From assembly GCF_011045215.1 (NCBI RefSeq), contig NZ_CP049201.1: 64,000 nucleotides of DNA; one strand, written 5' to 3'. Made by a program: the position numbers and the translations under genes. How positions within the stretch are numbered: the stretch's first letter is position 1; every line of letters begins with the position of its first letter. Below the pieces are notes generated by a model, which saw only the letters and a program-made list of their open reading frames with translations, was not told where the DNA came from and ran no database searches. This document shows positions 16,688 through 25,002 of this stretch, piece by piece. This DNA comes from Escherichia coli. GTDB lineage: Bacteria; Pseudomonadota; Gammaproteobacteria; Enterobacterales; Enterobacteriaceae.

Positions 16688-16978
16688 GATTGTGCTCCTT
16701 TTGAAAGATGTCAGTAAAATTAACACACATTGTGAATGTCGTATGTCCGGTGATGCGTTTTTACGACAATAATGCCTACTTGAAATTGTAGATATTTGCA
16801 CTACACCCTTTTAAATAAAGCACCAACAAATCGTCAACTTGCAGAACATATTCTTCTGCCTACATACCATTAAGAAAACATCAAGTTTCCGACTTGCCAA
16901 TTTATTAATGCCCATTATAGACGCTGAAACAAGCCACGGACAAAGAAGATGCCAAAATTACCGGCGATGCAGAAAAAC

Positions 16979-17350
16979 TCAACGAACCAGGGCAAGATTA
17001 CGAAAGCCCGCTCCCGCAAGGACTGACGCCAGATAGTTTCTGTCCATGGCTGCTTTTCGCATCTTACGTCTTAACCCTGCCTTGAATACCTTATCATTCG
17101 TCAAAATATTAATAGCAATGTGCCGTATCCCTGAAAATAATTCTGCAGCATTTCCTCTTCTTATTTTGCAGTCGTCTTCATTCATTACCACGTCCAGACG
17201 CCAGTGCAGCTTATTCTCCACGTGCCAGTGGTTTCGGATTGCTGTGGCGAACTTCTCTGCGGTTAAATCAGCAGAACTGATATAATATCTGACCGTCATT
17301 TCTGGCTCTTTCTTTTGTTCTGCTATTATTGACCGAAAGGAGACTGCCAC
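16979..17350 (-). mobile_element. Truncated H-repeat-associated (ISAs1-family) transposase remnant, C-terminal 123 aa only
   Basis: [30 protein letters not shown] is the conserved C-terminal DDE region of H-rpt/ISAs1 transposases (K-12 ydcC/yncI lie at the equivalent place). The N-terminal two-thirds is missing. Confidence 0.7.
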
Positions 17351-17667
17351 GCATAATTTCTTCAGTCCTTTCCATTCAAACGTGAAATCAATAAGTTCAT
17401 CAGGGACATCGCAAACAATATGAAGACGGATTTCTTCTCTGCCGTGACTAAAATGCGAATTATTTAGTACAAAAAAAGCGGCGCACCTTGTTCTTTCCCA
17501 GATTCCTAATATGGCAACTTTAAGTTATCGCCGTCTATACTTATAGAAATTTCATCAGGGGTGACGTAAATAGAATTTTTTTCATCCTCAATTGCCCATA
17601 ACTGATTAATAAAAAAGTATTTTTTTCATCTAATAAAAAATTATCACATGTAGTAAAATTATTAATA

Positions 17668-18327
17668 TCAAAAAAAATCATCAGCACAATTAATTTTTAA
17701 ATTTAAAAAATAAAGAAAAATATTATTGATTGATTTGAGTGTAAACCACTTGTCATTAACAAATTTATAGCCAGATGATTTTATAAAATAATAATTATCT
17801 CCTGGTATAAAGGCATACATATCATTTAAGGTTATACTCAACAAAAAACTACGACCTGGTTTAATAGTATTCCACCGTTCAGGATTCGTATTAATTTCAA
17901 AAGGACATGAACCACCTAAGTAGTCCAACGTGATATTCCCAGAGTTGATTCTGAATGGTTTTTTGCATATCGCATCATATTCATCTCCTTTTCCATCTTT
18001 TACTTTCATAGGTAGATAATATTTAGAAAAAAAATACGTGGTAGAGCTATTGTTAGTAAAGGTTATGTTAGCAAAAATCCTGTTATTTTTTTTACTCATA
18101 GCTAATTGAGCATTGACATCCGCTATATAATTTATATGATTACATTTTTTCTTACACTCATCATAATTTTCGATAGGATAAATTAATGGCCTTCCTTTGA
18201 TATCTCTCTCAAGCCCAAACCCGTATTTTTTTATTAAAACCATTTCATCCGCAGTCGATTGAAAGGAATAGAAAAATATAATATTTACGATTGTCATTAT
18301 TATGATTTTTTTTATAGCTTGCAGCAT
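17668..18327 (-). CDS. Hypothetical exported protein (219 aa) with N-terminal signal peptide; AT-rich island ORF
   Basis: Hydrophobic N-terminus IIIMTIVNIIFFYSFQSTADE; strongly AT-rich; no family recognised. Confidence 0.45.
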   Translation of the reverse strand: MLQAIKKIIIMTIVNIIFFYSFQSTADEMVLIKKYGFGLERDIKGRPLIYPIENYDECKKKCNHINYIADVNAQLAMSKKNNRIFANITFTNNSSTTYFFSKYYLPMKVKDGKGDEYDAICKKPFRINSGNITLDYLGGSCPFEINTNPERWNTIKPGRSFLLSITLNDMYAFIPGDNYYFIKSSGYKFVNDKWFTLKSINNIFLYFLNLKINCADDFF

Positions 18328-18350
18328 TAATATATTTCTCGACTTATTAG

Positions 18351-18653
18351 TTAATGGAGAAGTGCTTTTTCTAATTCCGCTATTTTTTTCTTAACTGAAT
18401 TGCTTAATATTTCATCATTAATCGAGTCTATCTCACTTTCAATTAATCTTATTTCAAAATATCTTTCTATGTTATATGCATTCTCAAATATTTGATCTTT
18501 TTGTTTAGAGATCAGTTTAGTTGCAATACGGATATGTTCGTCATATGAAACTTCATCCTCTTTGCACGTTGAATATTTATCAGTAGTTGTATAATTCTGT
18601 GACCACATACCACCTTTTTTATTATCCCCATAATACCACTGAATATGAGACAT
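18351..18653 (-). CDS. Hypothetical small protein (100 aa), candidate immunity or accessory protein
   Basis: ATG at 18651-18653 with GGAAAGGA upstream; AT-rich; inside the VgrG island. Confidence 0.4.
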   Translation of the reverse strand: MSHIQWYYGDNKKGGMWSQNYTTTDKYSTCKEDEVSYDEHIRIATKLISKQKDQIFENAYNIERYFEIRLIESEIDSINDEILSNSVKKKIAELEKALLH

Positions 18654-18691
18654 TTCATGACATAAAGTAGCAACATGAGAATCCTTTCCCG

Positions 18692-19141
18692 TTACTGGAT
18701 TTTTTTGCCATCTCTATACTCAAATTTTGCGCCTATGTTAATTATATAGGGCATATCCTTACTTGGGCTGACGAATGCTGCAAATTCATTACAACCTGTA
18801 TAATTTATAAAACTGCTCATTGTTAAATCATTAGCTATAATCATTAATCTTCTCACACCATCCATCATAAGAAATCTAGCATTCATGCGCCTAACTGTAT
18901 TATGTCCATATTTTCTTATATTAACTTCCTTATTTCCTTTAACACCAAAGATCTTACTGAAATCATATTCCTCCTGTGCTCCCCATCTCAAAAGATCATC
19001 TGCTCTTTTTATCAAAACCAACTTTTGTGCCTTACGAACCTTATCAATCATTATTTTAAAATGATCAGTTATTTTTTGCTCTTTCACACATTCTTCTGGC
19101 TCTGGCTTTGGTTGTCCAGAAGTTTGATTATTATCGTCCAT
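18692..19141 (-). CDS. Hypothetical protein (149 aa from the ATG with an RBS; the longest ORF runs to 19198)
   Basis: GGAAGGA then ATG (MDDNNQTSGQ...) at 19141; AT-rich; no recognisable domain. Confidence 0.4.
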   Translation of the reverse strand: MDDNNQTSGQPKPEPEECVKEQKITDHFKIMIDKVRKAQKLVLIKRADDLLRWGAQEEYDFSKIFGVKGNKEVNIRKYGHNTVRRMNARFLMMDGVRRLMIIANDLTMSSFINYTGCNEFAAFVSPSKDMPYIINIGAKFEYRDGKKIQ

Positions 19142-19327
19142 AGTGTCCTTCCATTGAGAGAAAATCATCATTCGCAAATAGCAACTAAAAAGCAGCATTA
19201 CTTGACCTTTCCCTGCATAACAATATTTATAAAATAATACGTTTTATGATCTCACCTTGGGCTCCCAACAAGATAATTTCAGTTTTAAAGACTTTCACGA
19301 AAAAATATAGAAATACCTCACCACCCT

Positions 19328-19618
19328 TCACTTACCAATTAATCTCACAGGAAATCCAACTTCCTTACCACAAATACAATCCCAAGTAACATTTCCCAAA
19401 ATTTTTGATACTTTAGGCTGCAATGGCATTATTGACATTATAAATTTATCAAGTTCTTCGCTATATTTAATTCCCTTTATATTTCTTATTATTGATATTC
19501 TAGCAGTAAAGATAGCCGTCTCTCCATCTACACTAAAAGTGTAATTACAATTTTTTGTAATCTCATCAAATTCAACCGATAACAAATCAATATTATGGTT
19601 TGTAAACACTATGCCCAT
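19328..19618 (-). CDS. Putative cognate immunity protein (96 aa) for the upstream T6SS toxin
   Basis: Start overlaps the toxin stop by 26 nt, a typical toxin-immunity arrangement; small and AT-rich. Confidence 0.5.
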   Translation of the reverse strand: MGIVFTNHNIDLLSVEFDEITKNCNYTFSVDGETAIFTARISIIRNIKGIKYSEELDKFIMSIMPLQPKVSKILGNVTWDCICGKEVGFPVRLIGK

Positions 19619-21032
19619 TCCATACCTCCTTAAATTCCTGTTCAGTCATCAGATATCGACTCCCTTGATATGGATCATATATTATCACATTCCCAGCATC
19701 ATCAACACCCTTAACAAGTACCCAATGTCCTACTTTACTTCCAGAATCCCACATCATTGCTCCCCATGAACCAGTATTACTGAGGGCATATAAACTAGAT
19801 TCGCTCACTGCATTCCCTTCCCAGCCGACATCAAATTTATTAAGCTTGTTTGCCAGCGACGTCATAGATGTTAATTCTGTTCCAATTACATTTTGCGTGA
19901 CAAAAATATACCTATCCCTAAGCAACATTTCCCCACAGGCCGCTCCACAGCCTGTTAAAGTCAATTGCTTTATTACATTTGAATCTAAAACCTCATCAAA
20001 TACTGTCCAATTGCCACCAGCACCACCTTCTAAAACTACCGGCTCTACAAATACTTTCCCAGAGATATTTTCTTCTGGTATTTTTGCGGGTATCATAAAG
20101 CCCCATAAAAAGCTGGAAAAATGCTCCAGAGCAATCTGATCACCATTATTTGCATCCATTATCATTTTTTTAAGTGCATCCCATGCTTGCCCATTTATCA
20201 ATGAATCACTAATATTAAATAAAGCCTGTTCTTTTTCGTTTAAATTTATATTTGCCTGTTCACATAACCCATCTTCGCCTATCGGGCAAGCAACCGTTGC
20301 CGTTGCCGTATCTAACAGAGCATCGAATGTAACTAAGGCTAAATCCGCCACACCATGTAAAGTGGTGATTGCTCCATTCCCCATTTGAGTAAGTGTGTTC
20401 TCTCCAAACCATTCTCTAATTTGAGATTTATCTCCTTCAATACCATTCCTGAGAGATTCTCTGATATTCTTTATTGAAAAAAACTCCCCCCATGATTGGT
20501 CAGGATCTTTTATTTGGAATAAATCATTTTTAACCTCAGGTGAAATATCTCCGTCAAAAATATTACCAACAGAGAGGAGATCCTTCAGAAGCAGTAAATC
20601 GTGTATTACTTCAGCAGTCCTTTCATAATTAAAACTTCTATCAATGACAGAAATCATTGGTGATTTTATTTTGGTATATAATTTACCAAGGCAGTTATGG
20701 TTATTAATCCCAACAACTGAACCATGATAAGCAACAGGTTTCCCTTCTATTGTTACAGTCGGACTTCCCGTTAAAATAACACAGTCACCCGTTCCTTGAG
20801 ATGTACCGGATATGACACCTTTACCGGCATTACTTTGAGTTCCAGCAATCACTGAACCAACATTTAAAGCTCTGCATCCACGCGCCCATACCGTTGAACT
20901 GTACTGTCTTTCACTATCTAAAGTCTGGTAACTGTCAAAAGGAACCTTGTAACCTCCTACTTCACATACATCTGGTGAAGTACACACGACTCTAAATCTA
21001 GATTCACCATCCCCGATATGATAGTTACCCAT
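19593..21032 (-). CDS. T6SS polymorphic toxin: N-terminal PAAR-like (DUF4150-type) domain, C-terminal papain-like cysteine peptidase (C39-like) domain; 479 aa
   Basis: N-terminus VCTSPDVCEVGG...GSPTVTIEGKPVAYHGS resembles PAAR-like spike-capping domains. C-terminus has a CGAAC motif at residues 362-366 and GHWVLV...D...IYDP at 436-453, a Cys/His/Asp arrangement like peptidase C39 folds. Follows vgrG and the DUF2169-like gene. Confidence 0.6.
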   Translation of the reverse strand: MGNYHIGDGESRFRVVCTSPDVCEVGGYKVPFDSYQTLDSERQYSSTVWARGCRALNVGSVIAGTQSNAGKGVISGTSQGTGDCVILTGSPTVTIEGKPVAYHGSVVGINNHNCLGKLYTKIKSPMISVIDRSFNYERTAEVIHDLLLLKDLLSVGNIFDGDISPEVKNDLFQIKDPDQSWGEFFSIKNIRESLRNGIEGDKSQIREWFGENTLTQMGNGAITTLHGVADLALVTFDALLDTATATVACPIGEDGLCEQANINLNEKEQALFNISDSLINGQAWDALKKMIMDANNGDQIALEHFSSFLWGFMIPAKIPEENISGKVFVEPVVLEGGAGGNWTVFDEVLDSNVIKQLTLTGCGAACGEMLLRDRYIFVTQNVIGTELTSMTSLANKLNKFDVGWEGNAVSESSLYALSNTGSWGAMMWDSGSKVGHWVLVKGVDDAGNVIIYDPYQGSRYLMTEQEFKEVWNGHSVYKP

Positions 21033-22071
21033 AATATTTTTTCCCTATACATTCAGGAATAATACAACTCAGCACTCCTTCTTTCATTCCAAAAAAATCA
21101 GGTATTGTTAATCTCCAGGTAAGGTATATTTCCTGTCGACTTAAATCGATAACCATTGTATCCGCAACAGGTAAGAACATATGTGATGTATTATGCTTGG
21201 TTTTTAATATAAGTACAGGTCGTATACCTGGCAATTTTGTCTTAACAACCTGTTCAAATTTAAAAAAACCTTCAAGAGAGATGTTTTCATCGCCAGAGAG
21301 AAACCCCGTGTATATCATATCCGGATGAGCACTATTGTAGAACCGCTCATCAAAATCATCCGGCAAATAGGGATAGCGCTTTTCACGCCATACTTCATTG
21401 TAGGTTCCTGCATACTGGAGGCGACTTTTCCACCATCGAGATACAGGGCCAACACCTTGAAAAAAGTCAGATTCCCCATTAAAAATGGTAGCGTTTTCTG
21501 ACAAAGCAGAGCTGGTTATTTGTGGGAGTTTATATTGACAACTTGTATTAAGTTGGGAAATATCAGGATAATATCCACAACCTACAGGGTTTGCTGAAAA
21601 AACCAATTTCTCCATACCATCTGGTTGCCAAATACCACCGTAAGCAAGCTCATAGCGTAGAGGAATATTAATAATTTTATCTGGTAAGCTCATCTGCCAA
21701 CGATTTCGCTCATATTGTAAGTAGCGGACACCAGATAAACTCAGTTCTTTAGAAAAACTATTAACCCTCACACAAGCCTTCCACTGAGACTTATCCCCTG
21801 AAGGGGCATGAGCACTACCTGTCACGTGAATATCTGTATTTCTTTTACAAAGAACTAAGTCTGTTTCAGATTTTAGACTACTTGTTTCAGGCTCCCCATA
21901 GTATTCATCAGACATGGACAATTCTCTTTGAAATTCAGCAAGATCAGCATAAAATCCATTTTTAATTCGCAATGACATTTTAATAGCAATAACATCAAAC
22001 AAAAGACCATAACGACCATATTTTTCAAATGACAACAAAGGAAATGGCGTGTTATTTTTCATTTCTATCAT
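21025..22071 (-). CDS. DUF2169-like T6SS adaptor/chaperone protein (348 aa)
   Basis: Called mainly by context: lies between vgrG and a PAAR-like toxin, and its stop overlaps the toxin start by 8 nt (translational coupling). Confidence 0.5.
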   Translation of the reverse strand: MIEMKNNTPFPLLSFEKYGRYGLLFDVIAIKMSLRIKNGFYADLAEFQRELSMSDEYYGEPETSSLKSETDLVLCKRNTDIHVTGSAHAPSGDKSQWKACVRVNSFSKELSLSGVRYLQYERNRWQMSLPDKIINIPLRYELAYGGIWQPDGMEKLVFSANPVGCGYYPDISQLNTSCQYKLPQITSSALSENATIFNGESDFFQGVGPVSRWWKSRLQYAGTYNEVWREKRYPYLPDDFDERFYNSAHPDMIYTGFLSGDENISLEGFFKFEQVVKTKLPGIRPVLILKTKHNTSHMFLPVADTMVIDLSRQEIYLTWRLTIPDFFGMKEGVLSCIIPECIGKKYYG

Positions 22072-22177
22072 GCTTATTGATCCCTGAATAAGTCATGCTA
22101 TGATTAATTTAAACAATCACAAATGGTGATTCACAGGCGTATAAAGCAAATACAATCACCATGTTTTATATTCTGCA

Positions 22178-24160
22178 CTATCCGTTCAGATGAATATCTT
22201 TTCCTTTAATATCTACAGGACCGGTAGCCTCAAATAGAAACTCCGTCCCCCGTATTATTATCTTTCCTGTTTTCTCCAGTTTTATGGAACAAGTCCCGCT
22301 CTCTCCCTGCCCACAAATTAGCTCAATACTGTCCCCAGATATGATTTTTGTACCATGCTCAACTTTCAGTTCGTAATTATCACCTATTTTAATACTCTGT
22401 TTTTTGACGACTTCTTCGGTATCAGTTCCCGTCACCTTGCTTGTCTGGTTGTTATTCACAACCTTGTGCCGGTCATTTTTTATCGTGAGATGCTGATCGT
22501 TCGCTACCGTCACTTTCTGGTCATGACCACCTTCCTTTTTGCTCCCCACATTCACCGTCTGGCCCTTCACCACCGTTATCTTCTGGTTGTTACCGATGGT
22601 TTCCGTATGGTCATGTTTCACATCCGTTGTCCGGTCGTTGAGCACCTCCGTATCCATGTTCTTCTGGGCATGGATATACACCTGCTCATTACTGGTGGCG
22701 TCTTCAAACCGTAGCTCGTTAAATCCGCTTCCTTTATAGGTTTTTGACCGGATGGTCATCTGCGTCTTCGTTCCCGGCAGGTCGCCCGGGGAGCGGTTAT
22801 CTTCATGGTAGGTCCGTCCCGTGACGATGGGCTGGTCCGGGTCGCCGTTCAGGAAGTCAACAATCACCTCCTGGCCCACCCGCGGTATCGCCAGGTTACC
22901 GAACCCCGGCCCCGCCCACGCCTGCGATACCCGCACCCAGCATGAACTCGCCTCCGTCATCCCGTGATAACGGTCCCAGTGGAACTTCACCCGTACCCGG
23001 CCATGTTCGTCGCAGAATATCTCCTCACCCTTCGGCCCGGTCACAATGGCACTCTGCGGCCCGTCCACCTTCGGTTTGCTTTGCAGCCGTGGACGCCACG
23101 TCCGGTCTGCCGGTATCACCTCTAACTGATTTCCCAGCGTGGTTCCCCTCCCCTGGCTGCCGTGCAGCGCCTGCGGCTGGCTTCCTGACAGTATGCTCTG
23201 TACCACCTGCCATTCACGGTTCAGCATCTTCTGCGGATGCCCCGTCAGCGTAAACCGCGTTCCCGGCCACAGCTTCGGTGAATTACTCTGCCCTGTGGCC
23301 TTTTCCGCATCACTGCGCAGGCTGTCCATCTGGTACAGCGTGAAATCCTTGCCGTGCTGCTCATCCTTGAACCTTCCCGGATAATCAAATATCTCGTACT
23401 GCGCCAGCTGTCCGTTCAGGTTCTCACCCTGCTGCTCATACATCCCCGGCCAGTCCGGCACCTTAAACGTGTAATCCTGACTCTGCACCGACGACGGGCG
23501 GACATGCGCCTCATAACGGAACGTACTGAGACACTCCGTCTCCGCTCCTGCCGATGTGTCCGGGTTAAACGGAAGCTCTCCCGCCTGTGACAGCCCCGCC
23601 ACATCGTCGCACAGCGTCAGCTTCTGCTCCGGGCTGTCCGCCGCAAACCGCTCAAAGAAGAAAATCCCCTCCTCCGCCCACAGCCGCGCCAGAAACGCCA
23701 GGTCGCTCTCTCCGTACTGGACACAGAACTCCCGCGCCGGATGGTCTTCATAAAACAGCGGCGTCCACTCCGTGACGCCGTTCTCATTCAGTAACGTGGC
23801 CGATATCGTCCGGATATCCTGCTGCTGGAAGATACGGAAGTTCTGCCGCAGCCCGCACCGCCATAACGGCGGCTCAATACGCAGGTGATAACGCATCTGC
23901 CAGCCATTGTTCTCCTGCATGCCAAAACCCGCCACCACGCCGGTGACATAACGCAGCGGGATGACGCCCTGCCAGATGGTCAGCGTCGCCTTCTTCTCCA
24001 GCAGCATCTCCGCCGTCTGCATAAAAGAGTCGCTGGCAACATCCACACTCATCACAAACGGATATGACTGGTTCTGGATTAACCTGAAGCTCACCACTGC
24101 AAAGGTGTCCGGCTCCTGGCCGTCAACCTCCAGCGTAAAGCGCAGACCTTTTAAGGACAT
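22178..24160 (-). CDS. vgrG: Type VI secretion spike protein VgrG (660 aa)
   Basis: N-terminus MSLKGLRFTLEVDGQEPDTFAVVSFRLIQ and central gp27/gp5-like regions (IFDYPGRF, HWDRYHG, VGQEVIVDFLNGDPDQPIVTGRTYH) are hallmark VgrG motifs. The C-terminal third is AT-rich and repetitive. Confidence 0.88.
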   Translation of the reverse strand: MSLKGLRFTLEVDGQEPDTFAVVSFRLIQNQSYPFVMSVDVASDSFMQTAEMLLEKKATLTIWQGVIPLRYVTGVVAGFGMQENNGWQMRYHLRIEPPLWRCGLRQNFRIFQQQDIRTISATLLNENGVTEWTPLFYEDHPAREFCVQYGESDLAFLARLWAEEGIFFFERFAADSPEQKLTLCDDVAGLSQAGELPFNPDTSAGAETECLSTFRYEAHVRPSSVQSQDYTFKVPDWPGMYEQQGENLNGQLAQYEIFDYPGRFKDEQHGKDFTLYQMDSLRSDAEKATGQSNSPKLWPGTRFTLTGHPQKMLNREWQVVQSILSGSQPQALHGSQGRGTTLGNQLEVIPADRTWRPRLQSKPKVDGPQSAIVTGPKGEEIFCDEHGRVRVKFHWDRYHGMTEASSCWVRVSQAWAGPGFGNLAIPRVGQEVIVDFLNGDPDQPIVTGRTYHEDNRSPGDLPGTKTQMTIRSKTYKGSGFNELRFEDATSNEQVYIHAQKNMDTEVLNDRTTDVKHDHTETIGNNQKITVVKGQTVNVGSKKEGGHDQKVTVANDQHLTIKNDRHKVVNNNQTSKVTGTDTEEVVKKQSIKIGDNYELKVEHGTKIISGDSIELICGQGESGTCSIKLEKTGKIIIRGTEFLFEATGPVDIKGKDIHLNG

Positions 24161-24178
24161 AAATACCTCTCAGACATA

Positions 24179-24463
24179 TCAGCCTATATTTACCGTACCG
24201 CCACCAATGACCACGCCGCCGCAGTCAACAGCATCACCGCTTCTGGCGGCGGGCAGGCCGTCAATAAAGACGGTTGAAGAACCTCTGGCGATTTTACGGG
24301 GATGAGGGGGATGCTTCGGTTTAGCATGCGGCGTCAGCGGATCTCCCTGACGGGCTGCGGGGAGACCATCGATAAAAACGGTGGATGACCCGGCGGTGAT
24401 GACGGTCTCGTAATAACCGTCGTGCTGAGTGCCTTTGTCGGTGAGTTTGGCTGCTAAAGGCAT
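24179..24463 (-). CDS. PAAR-repeat protein (T6SS spike tip), 94 aa
   Basis: Two copies of SSTVFIDGLPAAR(Q/S)GD plus an N-terminal AAKLTD motif; 18 nt upstream of vgrG on the same strand. Confidence 0.75.
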   Translation of the reverse strand: MPLAAKLTDKGTQHDGYYETVITAGSSTVFIDGLPAARQGDPLTPHAKPKHPPHPRKIARGSSTVFIDGLPAARSGDAVDCGGVVIGGGTVNIG

Positions 24464-25002
24464 AATTTCTCCTGTTCAGAATTTCTACAGCAGCAGGTTT
24501 CAAAAATCCGGAGAAATATTCAACGAAATATTAATCACTTCACCGGATATTCTGATACGTACCTTCACTGGTCTATTTAAGTAATACAAATTGTTGGCGT
24601 GTATTAAGTTCCATTTTGTTCTCCTTAATTATGTAAGGAGTATTTGATCATGTATAAGCAATAAAAACAGCTTCAGGAAATAAGGAATATCGCAATTTTT
24701 AAACATAAAATGCGAATCGTTCAATACAAAAAAGCAGCGTTGCGTAATCTTTCCCTGATTAAATACGCTACCGCCCTACCCTGATGACATGATCTGCACT
24801 GCACTATCATATCGACATGTTTCTCTACATGCGAAAAGATGTTTTATTTTCGGATTATATTAAATTGACATTTCATATAAAAAACGAAATTACATCAATC
24901 ATATAAATAATTGTACCAACTTTAATTACTATTCATAGCAAACAAATGGATATCCAGTTAACTACGCCAGTGATTCATTAACATTAACCTCCGGCATTAT
25001 TG

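Follow-up and report, generated by a model that had tools for sequence, protein, structure and literature searches.

An overlapping 96-codon ORF behind the type VI effector gene cpe1 of Escherichia coli is very probably the immunity gene cpi1

Identification of the ORF

The 96-codon ORF described here lies in a 64-kb window of Escherichia coli DNA (the window being the whole stretch that was analyzed). There is little doubt that it is cpi1, the cytoplasmic immunity gene against the cysteine protease Cpe1, which is encoded immediately upstream. The Cpe1-Cpi1 pair is already known; its structure, substrates, and immunity mechanism were published in 2025, and it is named in current RefSeq. The differences seen in this window are minor and consist of a rare N76 allele, a location at the rhsE locus, and an apparently decayed M35-like cassette downstream. 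The coordinates of all features are given in Table 1.

Table 1. Features of the cpe1-cpi1 island and its surroundings, in positions of the window.
Feature	Position	Strand	Basis or remark
ISAs1/H-repeat transposase remnant, island end toward pptA	16979-17350	-	
219-aa ORF with hydrophobic N-terminus (…MTIVNIIFFYSFQSTADE…), after the M35-like gene	17554-18327	-	
M35-like metallopeptidase gene, HEMSH motif, next after cpi1	18351-19198	-	Aspzincin_M35, E 0.0046 (weak)
cpi1 (96-aa Cpi1, N76 allele)	19328..19618	-	ATG start; ORF finder listing
Shine-Dalgarno AAGGAGG of cpi1	19625..19631	-	Within final cpe1 codons; read from sequence
cpe1, T6SS effector (PAAR-like, entry-like, and C39 cysteine protease regions), 479 aa	19593..21032	-	
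Cpe1 protease (toxin) domain, aa 338-479	19596..20021	-	Match to 9L5U chain A
Cpe1 catalytic Asp453	19674-19676	-	Alignment to StbD
Cpe1 catalytic His436	19725-19727	-	Alignment to StbD
Cpe1 catalytic Cys362	19947-19949	-	Paper numbering
Cpe1 middle region, aa 189-337, entry-domain homologue	20022..20468	-	8SSK chain A alignment
Cpe1 PAAR-like domain, aa 15-115	20688..20990	-	Pfam PF13665
DUF2169 T6SS accessory (adaptor) gene	21025..22071	-	ORF; 345/348 identical to S88 WP_000571853.1
vgrG, spike protein, 660 aa	22178..24160	-	ORF; 633/660 identical to S88 WP_000053636.1
Small stand-alone PAAR gene, 94 aa, island head	24179..24463	-	92/94 identical to PapM-32-1 WP_001127493.1

The identification is based on a search of solved structures, on RefSeq naming, and on the literature. 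In the search of PDB chain sequences, the ORF product is identical to chain C of 9L5U ("Cpi1") at 95 of 96 residues (E 2.6e-61). The single difference is at residue 76, which is Asn here and Gly in the crystallized protein (G76N). The second PDB match is chain C of 8SSM, "CdiI (immunity protein)", over residues 15-94 (E 3.2e-9). The ORF product is also 100% identical to WP_069913508.1, the RefSeq "cysteine protease immunity protein Cpi1", and the corresponding pair in strain S88 bears the gene names cpe1 and cpi1. Residues I47, M61, M64, and K72, which were mutated together in the published work described below, are all present at their published positions. An earlier note, made from the sequence alone, had proposed that the product of this ORF is a cognate protein conferring immunity to the toxin encoded upstream. 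The near identity to crystallized Cpi1 and the identity of the toxin's protease domain to Cpe1tox bear this out. The cues available to that note (the overlap, a small ORF behind a polymorphic toxin, and the lack of a signal peptide) had thus led to the right answer.

Family models do not recover the protein. It has no match in Pfam, even at E <=10, and none in NCBIfam; no model that detects Cpi1 exists in Pfam-A or in NCBIfam release 20. NCBIfam likewise returned nothing for the toxin, the DUF2169 protein, or the three downstream ORFs of the island. Annotation of the immunity protein is inconsistent. Most complete genomes list the same protein, or one differing by a single residue, as a "hypothetical protein", and the name "Cpi1" is confined to those annotated recently; WP_069913508.1 itself is labeled Cpi1 in strain 33F4, and older annotations have it as a "hypothetical protein". 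For practical purposes, it is useful to know that an N76 allele exists, that many RefSeq records say hypothetical, and that the Pfam and NCBIfam models miss Cpi1.

The cpe1/cpi1 junction and coding signals

Both ORFs are on the minus strand, which is the one correction to the earlier note; its coordinates for the 96-codon ORF are correct. The overlap spans 19593-19618 and is 26 nucleotides in length, including the toxin TAA. The earlier wording that the ORF begins 26 nucleotides before the toxin stop codon was loose on this point, as the 26 counts the TAA itself; the cpi1 ATG begins 23 nucleotides ahead of the first base of the TAA. The minus-strand junction reads GAATTTAAGGAGGTATGGAATGGGC. 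A perfect AAGGAGG was found by sequence inspection, with the cpi1 ATG 6 nucleotides downstream. The same 26-nucleotide overlap is present in the RefSeq annotation of S88 and of ATCC 11775.

The G+C content of cpi1 is 29.9%, compared with 47.8% for the whole window. AT-rich DNA of this kind raises the alternative that the ORF is a chance or untranslated overlapping frame. Such a reading would fit the absence of any Pfam or NCBIfam family and the "hypothetical protein" label that still stands in many RefSeq records. A 96-codon stop-free frame, however, arises about once in 10,000 shuffles of the cpi1 ORF and about 2 times in 1,000 sequences drawn at random to match the composition of the AT-rich island, so that frames of this length occur in roughly 1e-4 to 2e-3 of random sequences of the same composition. 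The remaining frames of the cpi1 interval contain 1 to 15 stops each. The perfect Shine-Dalgarno sequence also speaks against a chance frame, as do the purification and crystallization of a nearly identical protein and the existence of a homologue in Citrobacter rodentium, about one-third identical and also crystallized. A chance origin is therefore vanishingly improbable, and the ORF is treated below as the coding sequence of Cpi1.

By inspection, the Cpi1 N-terminus, MGIVFTNHNIDLLSVEFDEITK, has neither a basic n-region nor a hydrophobic core, in agreement with the earlier remark that no signal peptide is evident. Inspection of the N-terminus (MGIVFTNHNIDLLSVEFDE) for an export signal showed none, in keeping with a location in the cytoplasm.

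A simple scan of 19000-20300 found no convincing terminator after cpi1. Promoter-like sites in the same interval are weak, with matches of 9 of 12 positions at best, and nine were found against 5.0 ± 2.6 expected. The scan speaks neither for nor against an internal promoter of cpi1. The gene is presumably transcribed, and cpe1 and cpi1 are probably co-transcribed and translationally coupled.

The Cpe1 effector

Pfam identifies two regions in Cpe1, a Tox-PAAR-like domain (E 8.2e-12) and a Peptidase_C39 domain at residues 352-474 (E 1.2e-5). Residues 338-479 are identical to chain A of 9L5U, and the sole mismatch in the alignment is the aligned residue 337. Residues 189-477 align with chain A of 8SSK (StbD-CT) with an E value of 4e-82. 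StbD residues C183, H258, and D275 served as the alignment reference for the catalytic triad, with His436 of Cpe1 corresponding to His258 and Asp453 to Asp275. The toxin directly upstream of cpi1, in the same orientation, therefore has an intact Cys-His-Asp triad (C362, H436, and D453). Cys362 and the exosite residues L387, M390, A408, M426, W428, and V434 are all at their published Cpe1 positions. Over its full length, this Cpe1 is 100% identical to WP_088129690.1 of PapM-32-1. It differs from the Cpe1 of ATCC 11775 and S88 at 6 of 479 residues, none of which is in the protease domain.

The middle region ends in an auto-processing motif, LEGG/AGGNW (G336-G337/A338), and by analogy with StbD-CT, Cpe1 is predicted to cut itself between G337 and A338. 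The analogy also suggests that residues 189-337 may serve in entry into the cytoplasm, as judged from the preprint on StbD-CT (10.64898/2026.05.07.723447). A CDI-type entry module (that of StbD-CT, which is YajC-dependent) is thus carried by a T6SS effector, an observation that the 2026 preprint also makes.

The published work on the pair (Song et al. 2025, PLoS Biol 23:e3003208, PMC12136450) was done with the ATCC 11775 proteins, which include the G76 allele of Cpi1. There, Cpe1 proved to be a papain-like cysteine protease of the T6SS, with cytoplasmic GyrB and ParE as its substrates; it cuts the ATPase domain of each behind the Gly-Gly of LHAGGKF (PMC12136450). Expression of Cpe1tox causes growth arrest, and co-expression of Cpi1 rescues the cells (PMC12136450). 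Cys362 is needed for toxicity and for T6SS-dependent competition against MG1655 (PMC12136450). Cells are not rescued by cleavage-resistant GyrB and ParE (PMC12136450), and for this reason other targets of Cpe1 may exist.

The crystal structure of the Cpe1-Cpi1 complex was solved at 1.87 Å (PMC12136450). Cpi1 docks on a hydrophobic concave exosite made of L387, M390, A408, M426, W428, and V434, with an interface of 1,050 Å² that leaves the active site unoccluded (PMC12136450). It binds with a Kd of 8.58 nM, compared with 343 nM for the substrate, and displaces the ParE ATPase domain (PMC12136450). A quadruple mutant of Cpi1 (I47, M61, M64, and K72) lost both binding and protection, and protection persisted when the four interface residues were substituted singly (PMC12136450). 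Rescue, pull-down, affinity, and protection in T6SS competition have thus all been published for the ATCC 11775 allele (PMC12136450). What the window itself shows is identity of sequence, the order of the genes, and conservation of the interface and catalytic residues; the functional data are those of the literature for the G76 allele. From its sequence, the Cpi1 of the window would bind and neutralize Cpe1 as the published G76 allele does.

The folds of the papain-like and NlpC/P60 type include T6SS peptidoglycan amidases. The earlier note, having first favored a toxin acting in the cytoplasm, had added that a peptidase/amidase fold could suggest a periplasmic target. Under that alternative, Cpi1 would act in the periplasm against a toxin of the cell-wall amidase type; the existence of such amidases within these folds and the moderate C39 match in Pfam speak for it. 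The ORF has no signal peptide, however, and the toxin domain is identical to Cpe1tox, whose targets GyrB and ParE are cytoplasmic and against which a cytoplasmic Cpi1 protects. The domain is a C39/papain-like cysteine protease and no cell-wall amidase, and Cpe1 also contains the cytoplasm-entry domain of StbD-CT. The periplasmic alternative accordingly has next to no probability. The cytoplasmic target that the earlier note had preferred agrees with the published cleavage of GyrB and ParE (PMC12136450), and Cpi1 is retained here as a cytoplasmic immunity protein.

The N76 allele

Codon 76 is AAT (Asn) in the window and GGT (Gly) in ATCC 11775, S88, and 2018-05-2CC. Apart from these two neighboring nucleotides, the gene is the same in the window and in those three strains. 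The G76 sequence (99.3% identity) prevails, being present in almost every one of the 332 complete genomes with cpi1. Translation showed N76 in PapM-32-1 and 33F4; strains 32F4 and 33E match the window equally closely, the translations covering PapM-32-1 and 33F4.

In the alignment with StbI, Gly75 of Cpi1 corresponds to His75, and the following StbI residue, at position 76, is Lys. StbI His75 is in backbone contact with the peptidase (10.64898/2026.05.07.723447). Residue 76 of Cpi1 therefore borders the interface, as its neighbor makes contact in the StbI complex.

The change could mean that the ORF is Cpi1 by descent and that the rare G76N substitution weakens or re-tunes binding, leaving an immunity protein that is partly defective or shifted in specificity. 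The substitution involves two adjacent nucleotides (GGT to AAT), each non-synonymous for codon 76, nearly all of the 332 genomes keep G76, and in the homologue StbI, residue 75 touches the backbone of the peptidase. Against this, the toxin domain to be neutralized is identical to the crystallized one. A full-length and apparently intact cpe1 stands beside N76 both here and in PapM-32-1, where a failure of immunity would mean self-poisoning. Position 76 is also variable, being Lys in StbI, and only the quadruple interface mutant lost protection, which single substitutions did not. An impaired or re-tuned allele is thus very unlikely. The N76 allele is expected from its sequence to work, because an intact full-length cpe1 coexists with it and because single interface substitutions kept protection.

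A broader proposal is that Asn76 alters affinity or cross-protection, that the module moved to the rhsE locus, and that cpi1 is kept beside a truncated cpe1 in about one-tenth of its carriers. Taken as a whole, this proposal is rated improbable. If true, it would mean ongoing exchange of cassettes and retention of orphan immunity for a topoisomerase-cleaving toxin in natural E. coli.

Organization and chromosomal site of the module

The genes form a co-oriented run on the minus strand in the order PAAR, vgrG, DUF2169, cpe1, and cpi1, and the DUF2169 gene overlaps the start of cpe1 by 8 nucleotides. The RefSeq counterparts are named "type VI secretion system PAAR protein" (WP_001127493.1 of PapM-32-1), "type VI secretion system Vgr family protein" (WP_000053636.1 of S88), and "DUF2169 family type VI secretion system accessory protein" (WP_000571853.1 of S88). 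The arrangement is that of a T6SS PAAR effector, with a PAAR-like domain on the effector itself and vgrG and a DUF2169 adaptor gene upstream on the same strand. No T6SS core (tss) genes were recognized within the 64-kb window. The strain that carries it presumably has an active T6SS.

Two other classes of toxin system were considered and set aside. A type II toxin-antitoxin pair was rejected because vgrG and the DUF2169 gene precede the toxin, which itself has a PAAR-like domain. A CDI system of the CdiA-CT/CdiI kind is recognized by a CdiA-type carrier, a toxin demarcated by a VENN-type motif, and a cdiB gene nearby. The toxin of the window is instead carried by a PAAR-like domain and follows vgrG; its immunity protein is a true homologue of StbI but does not belong to a CDI system.

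The module is located between yncG and pptA, which is the rhsE locus of K-12. In K-12, this interval contains yncH, the rhsE pseudogene, ydcD, yncI, and the H-repeat gene ydcC, and the island stands in place of the segment from yncH to ydcC (yncH-rhsE-ydcD-yncI-ydcC). The island is AT-rich (16800-24600), with 34.6% G+C over 17400-22100 compared with 47.8% for the window. In ATCC 11775, S88, and UTI89, the pair forms the last part of the main cluster of T6SS genes (tssBC, hcp, vgrG), adjoining yafV-ivy-fadE, and there too it lies beside ISAs1 remnants. The presence of ISAs1 remnants at both sites suggests that the cassette moves by recombination at ISAs1/H-repeat elements. It is of practical note that the module occurs at two chromosomal sites and that some lineages, for example O145:H28, keep an orphan cpi1.

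Proposed action of the locus

From the literature, Cpe1 is expected to attach to VgrG by way of its PAAR-like domain, together with the DUF2169 adaptor. It would then be fired into neighboring cells and reach the target cytoplasm, where the C39/papain-like domain would cut GyrB and ParE after the Gly-Gly of LHAGGKF. As a result of this cleavage, supercoiling control, chromosome segregation, and growth would all stop.

In the producer, Cpi1 would be made from the cpe1 message, probably by coupled translation from the AAGGAGG within the toxin gene and across the 26-nucleotide overlap. It would take the hydrophobic exosite beside the catalytic pocket with nanomolar affinity and outcompete GyrB and ParE, with the active site left open. 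Cpi1 would in this manner shield the producer and its kin from Cpe1. By analogy with StbD-CT and StbI, it probably also prevents Cpe1 from cleaving itself at G337/A338 inside the producer.

Comparison with related systems

The closest system is that of ATCC 11775. Its Cpi1 (WP_000513317.1; 9L5U chain C) is also 96 residues long and is the protein with which the window ORF shares 95 of 96 residues. The two loci have in common the 26-nucleotide overlap, the vgrG-DUF2169-cpe1 order, residues I47, M61, M64, and K72, and an identical protease domain. They differ in location, with the ATCC 11775 module following hcp as the last part of the main T6SS cluster and the window module placed between yncG and pptA with a small PAAR gene at its head. 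The downstream neighbors also differ, being an M35-like cassette in the window and ISAs1 remnants in ATCC 11775.

The Hayes and Goulding groups described the StbD-CT/StbI pair in a 2026 preprint (Nhan et al., 10.64898/2026.05.07.723447), with structures 8SSK, 8SSM, and 12AJ. StbI of Citrobacter rodentium DBS100 (8SSM chain C) has 95 residues, is about one-third identical to Cpi1, and conserves Met61 and Met64. Like Cpi1, it docks on an exosite outside the active site, which stays open, and keeps GyrB from binding; like Cpe1, StbD-CT cleaves GyrB and ParE after Gly-Gly. StbD-CT has a YajC-dependent cytoplasm-entry domain and cuts itself in cis after a linker Gly-Gly, a cut that StbI blocks (10.64898/2026.05.07.723447). 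According to the authors, the entry domain and the processing site are common to Cpe1 (10.64898/2026.05.07.723447). The systems differ in their carriers, which are of the CDI type for StbD-CT (CdiA-like) and of the PAAR/T6SS type for Cpe1. The contacts of StbI are mainly hydrogen bonds, whereas the emphasis for Cpi1 is on a hydrophobic patch, and the sequences are divergent.

TsaP (gene 1835) of ExPEC RS218 (Lu et al. 2023, PMC10434152) has the architecture of Cpe1 under an earlier name, a likeness drawn here from its description. It is encoded by a 1440-bp gene at the end of a T6SS cluster and has a PAAR domain, a middle region, and a C39 domain (PMC10434152). Its C-terminal part is toxic in E. 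coli; the paper named neither a downstream immunity gene nor substrates (PMC10434152).

The immunity proteins of the nuclease colicins, Im9/E9 and Im7/E7, are analogous in that a small cytoplasmic protein encoded directly after the toxin binds very tightly beside the active site and not within it. The comparison, which is made in both papers (PMC12136450; 10.64898/2026.05.07.723447), is an analogy only, as there is no relationship of sequence or fold, the colicin toxins are nucleases, and their delivery route is different.

Distribution and the downstream cassette

The cpi1 gene is present as a single copy in 332 of 5426 complete E. coli genomes, and in the rows inspected, it always adjoins cpe1 or a cpe1 remnant. 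The whole island was found intact in none of the complete E. coli genomes searched. The best match to the whole island is 2018-05-2CC, in which IS600 is inserted in vgrG. PapM-32-1 is 100% identical over cpe1-cpi1 and lacks the DUF2169 gene and most of vgrG.

About 30 of the roughly 330 complete genomes with cpi1 cover less than 80% of the cpe1 plus cpi1 query. In 33F4 (L001 6929-7529), an intact cpi1 is located beside a 111-residue, 5'-truncated cpe1, behind a truncated vgrG. This cpe1 remnant begins at Met367, and the catalytic Cys362 is therefore missing. Similar C39-fragment annotations are found beside cpi1 in O145:H28 genomes. The cpi1 genes of 33F4 and O145:H28 look like orphan immunity genes kept after loss of the toxin. 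The one divergent cpi1 copy is that of E. coli SCU-485 (NZ_CP053245.1, 2885596-2885888), with 98.0% identity and 293 bases aligned with the 291-base query. There is no cpi1 CDS annotated beneath this match, and the gene may be frameshifted.

The M35-like gene next to cpi1 is intact, at 263 residues, in PapM-32-1 and 33F4 (WP_069913544.1). In the window, the gene falls into two ORFs of 168 and 100 residues because the A-run near 18699 is A7 and is A8 in the relatives. The A7 reflects either a genuine frameshift or an error in sequencing the homopolymer. The 219-residue ORF that follows has no Pfam family, and its counterparts are 263 residues long in 33F4 and 247 in PapM-32-1. Over 17575-18306, the window differs from both strains by several single-base indels and by substitutions. 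A second effector cassette, now in decay, may lie here, with this ORF as its immunity or partner gene.
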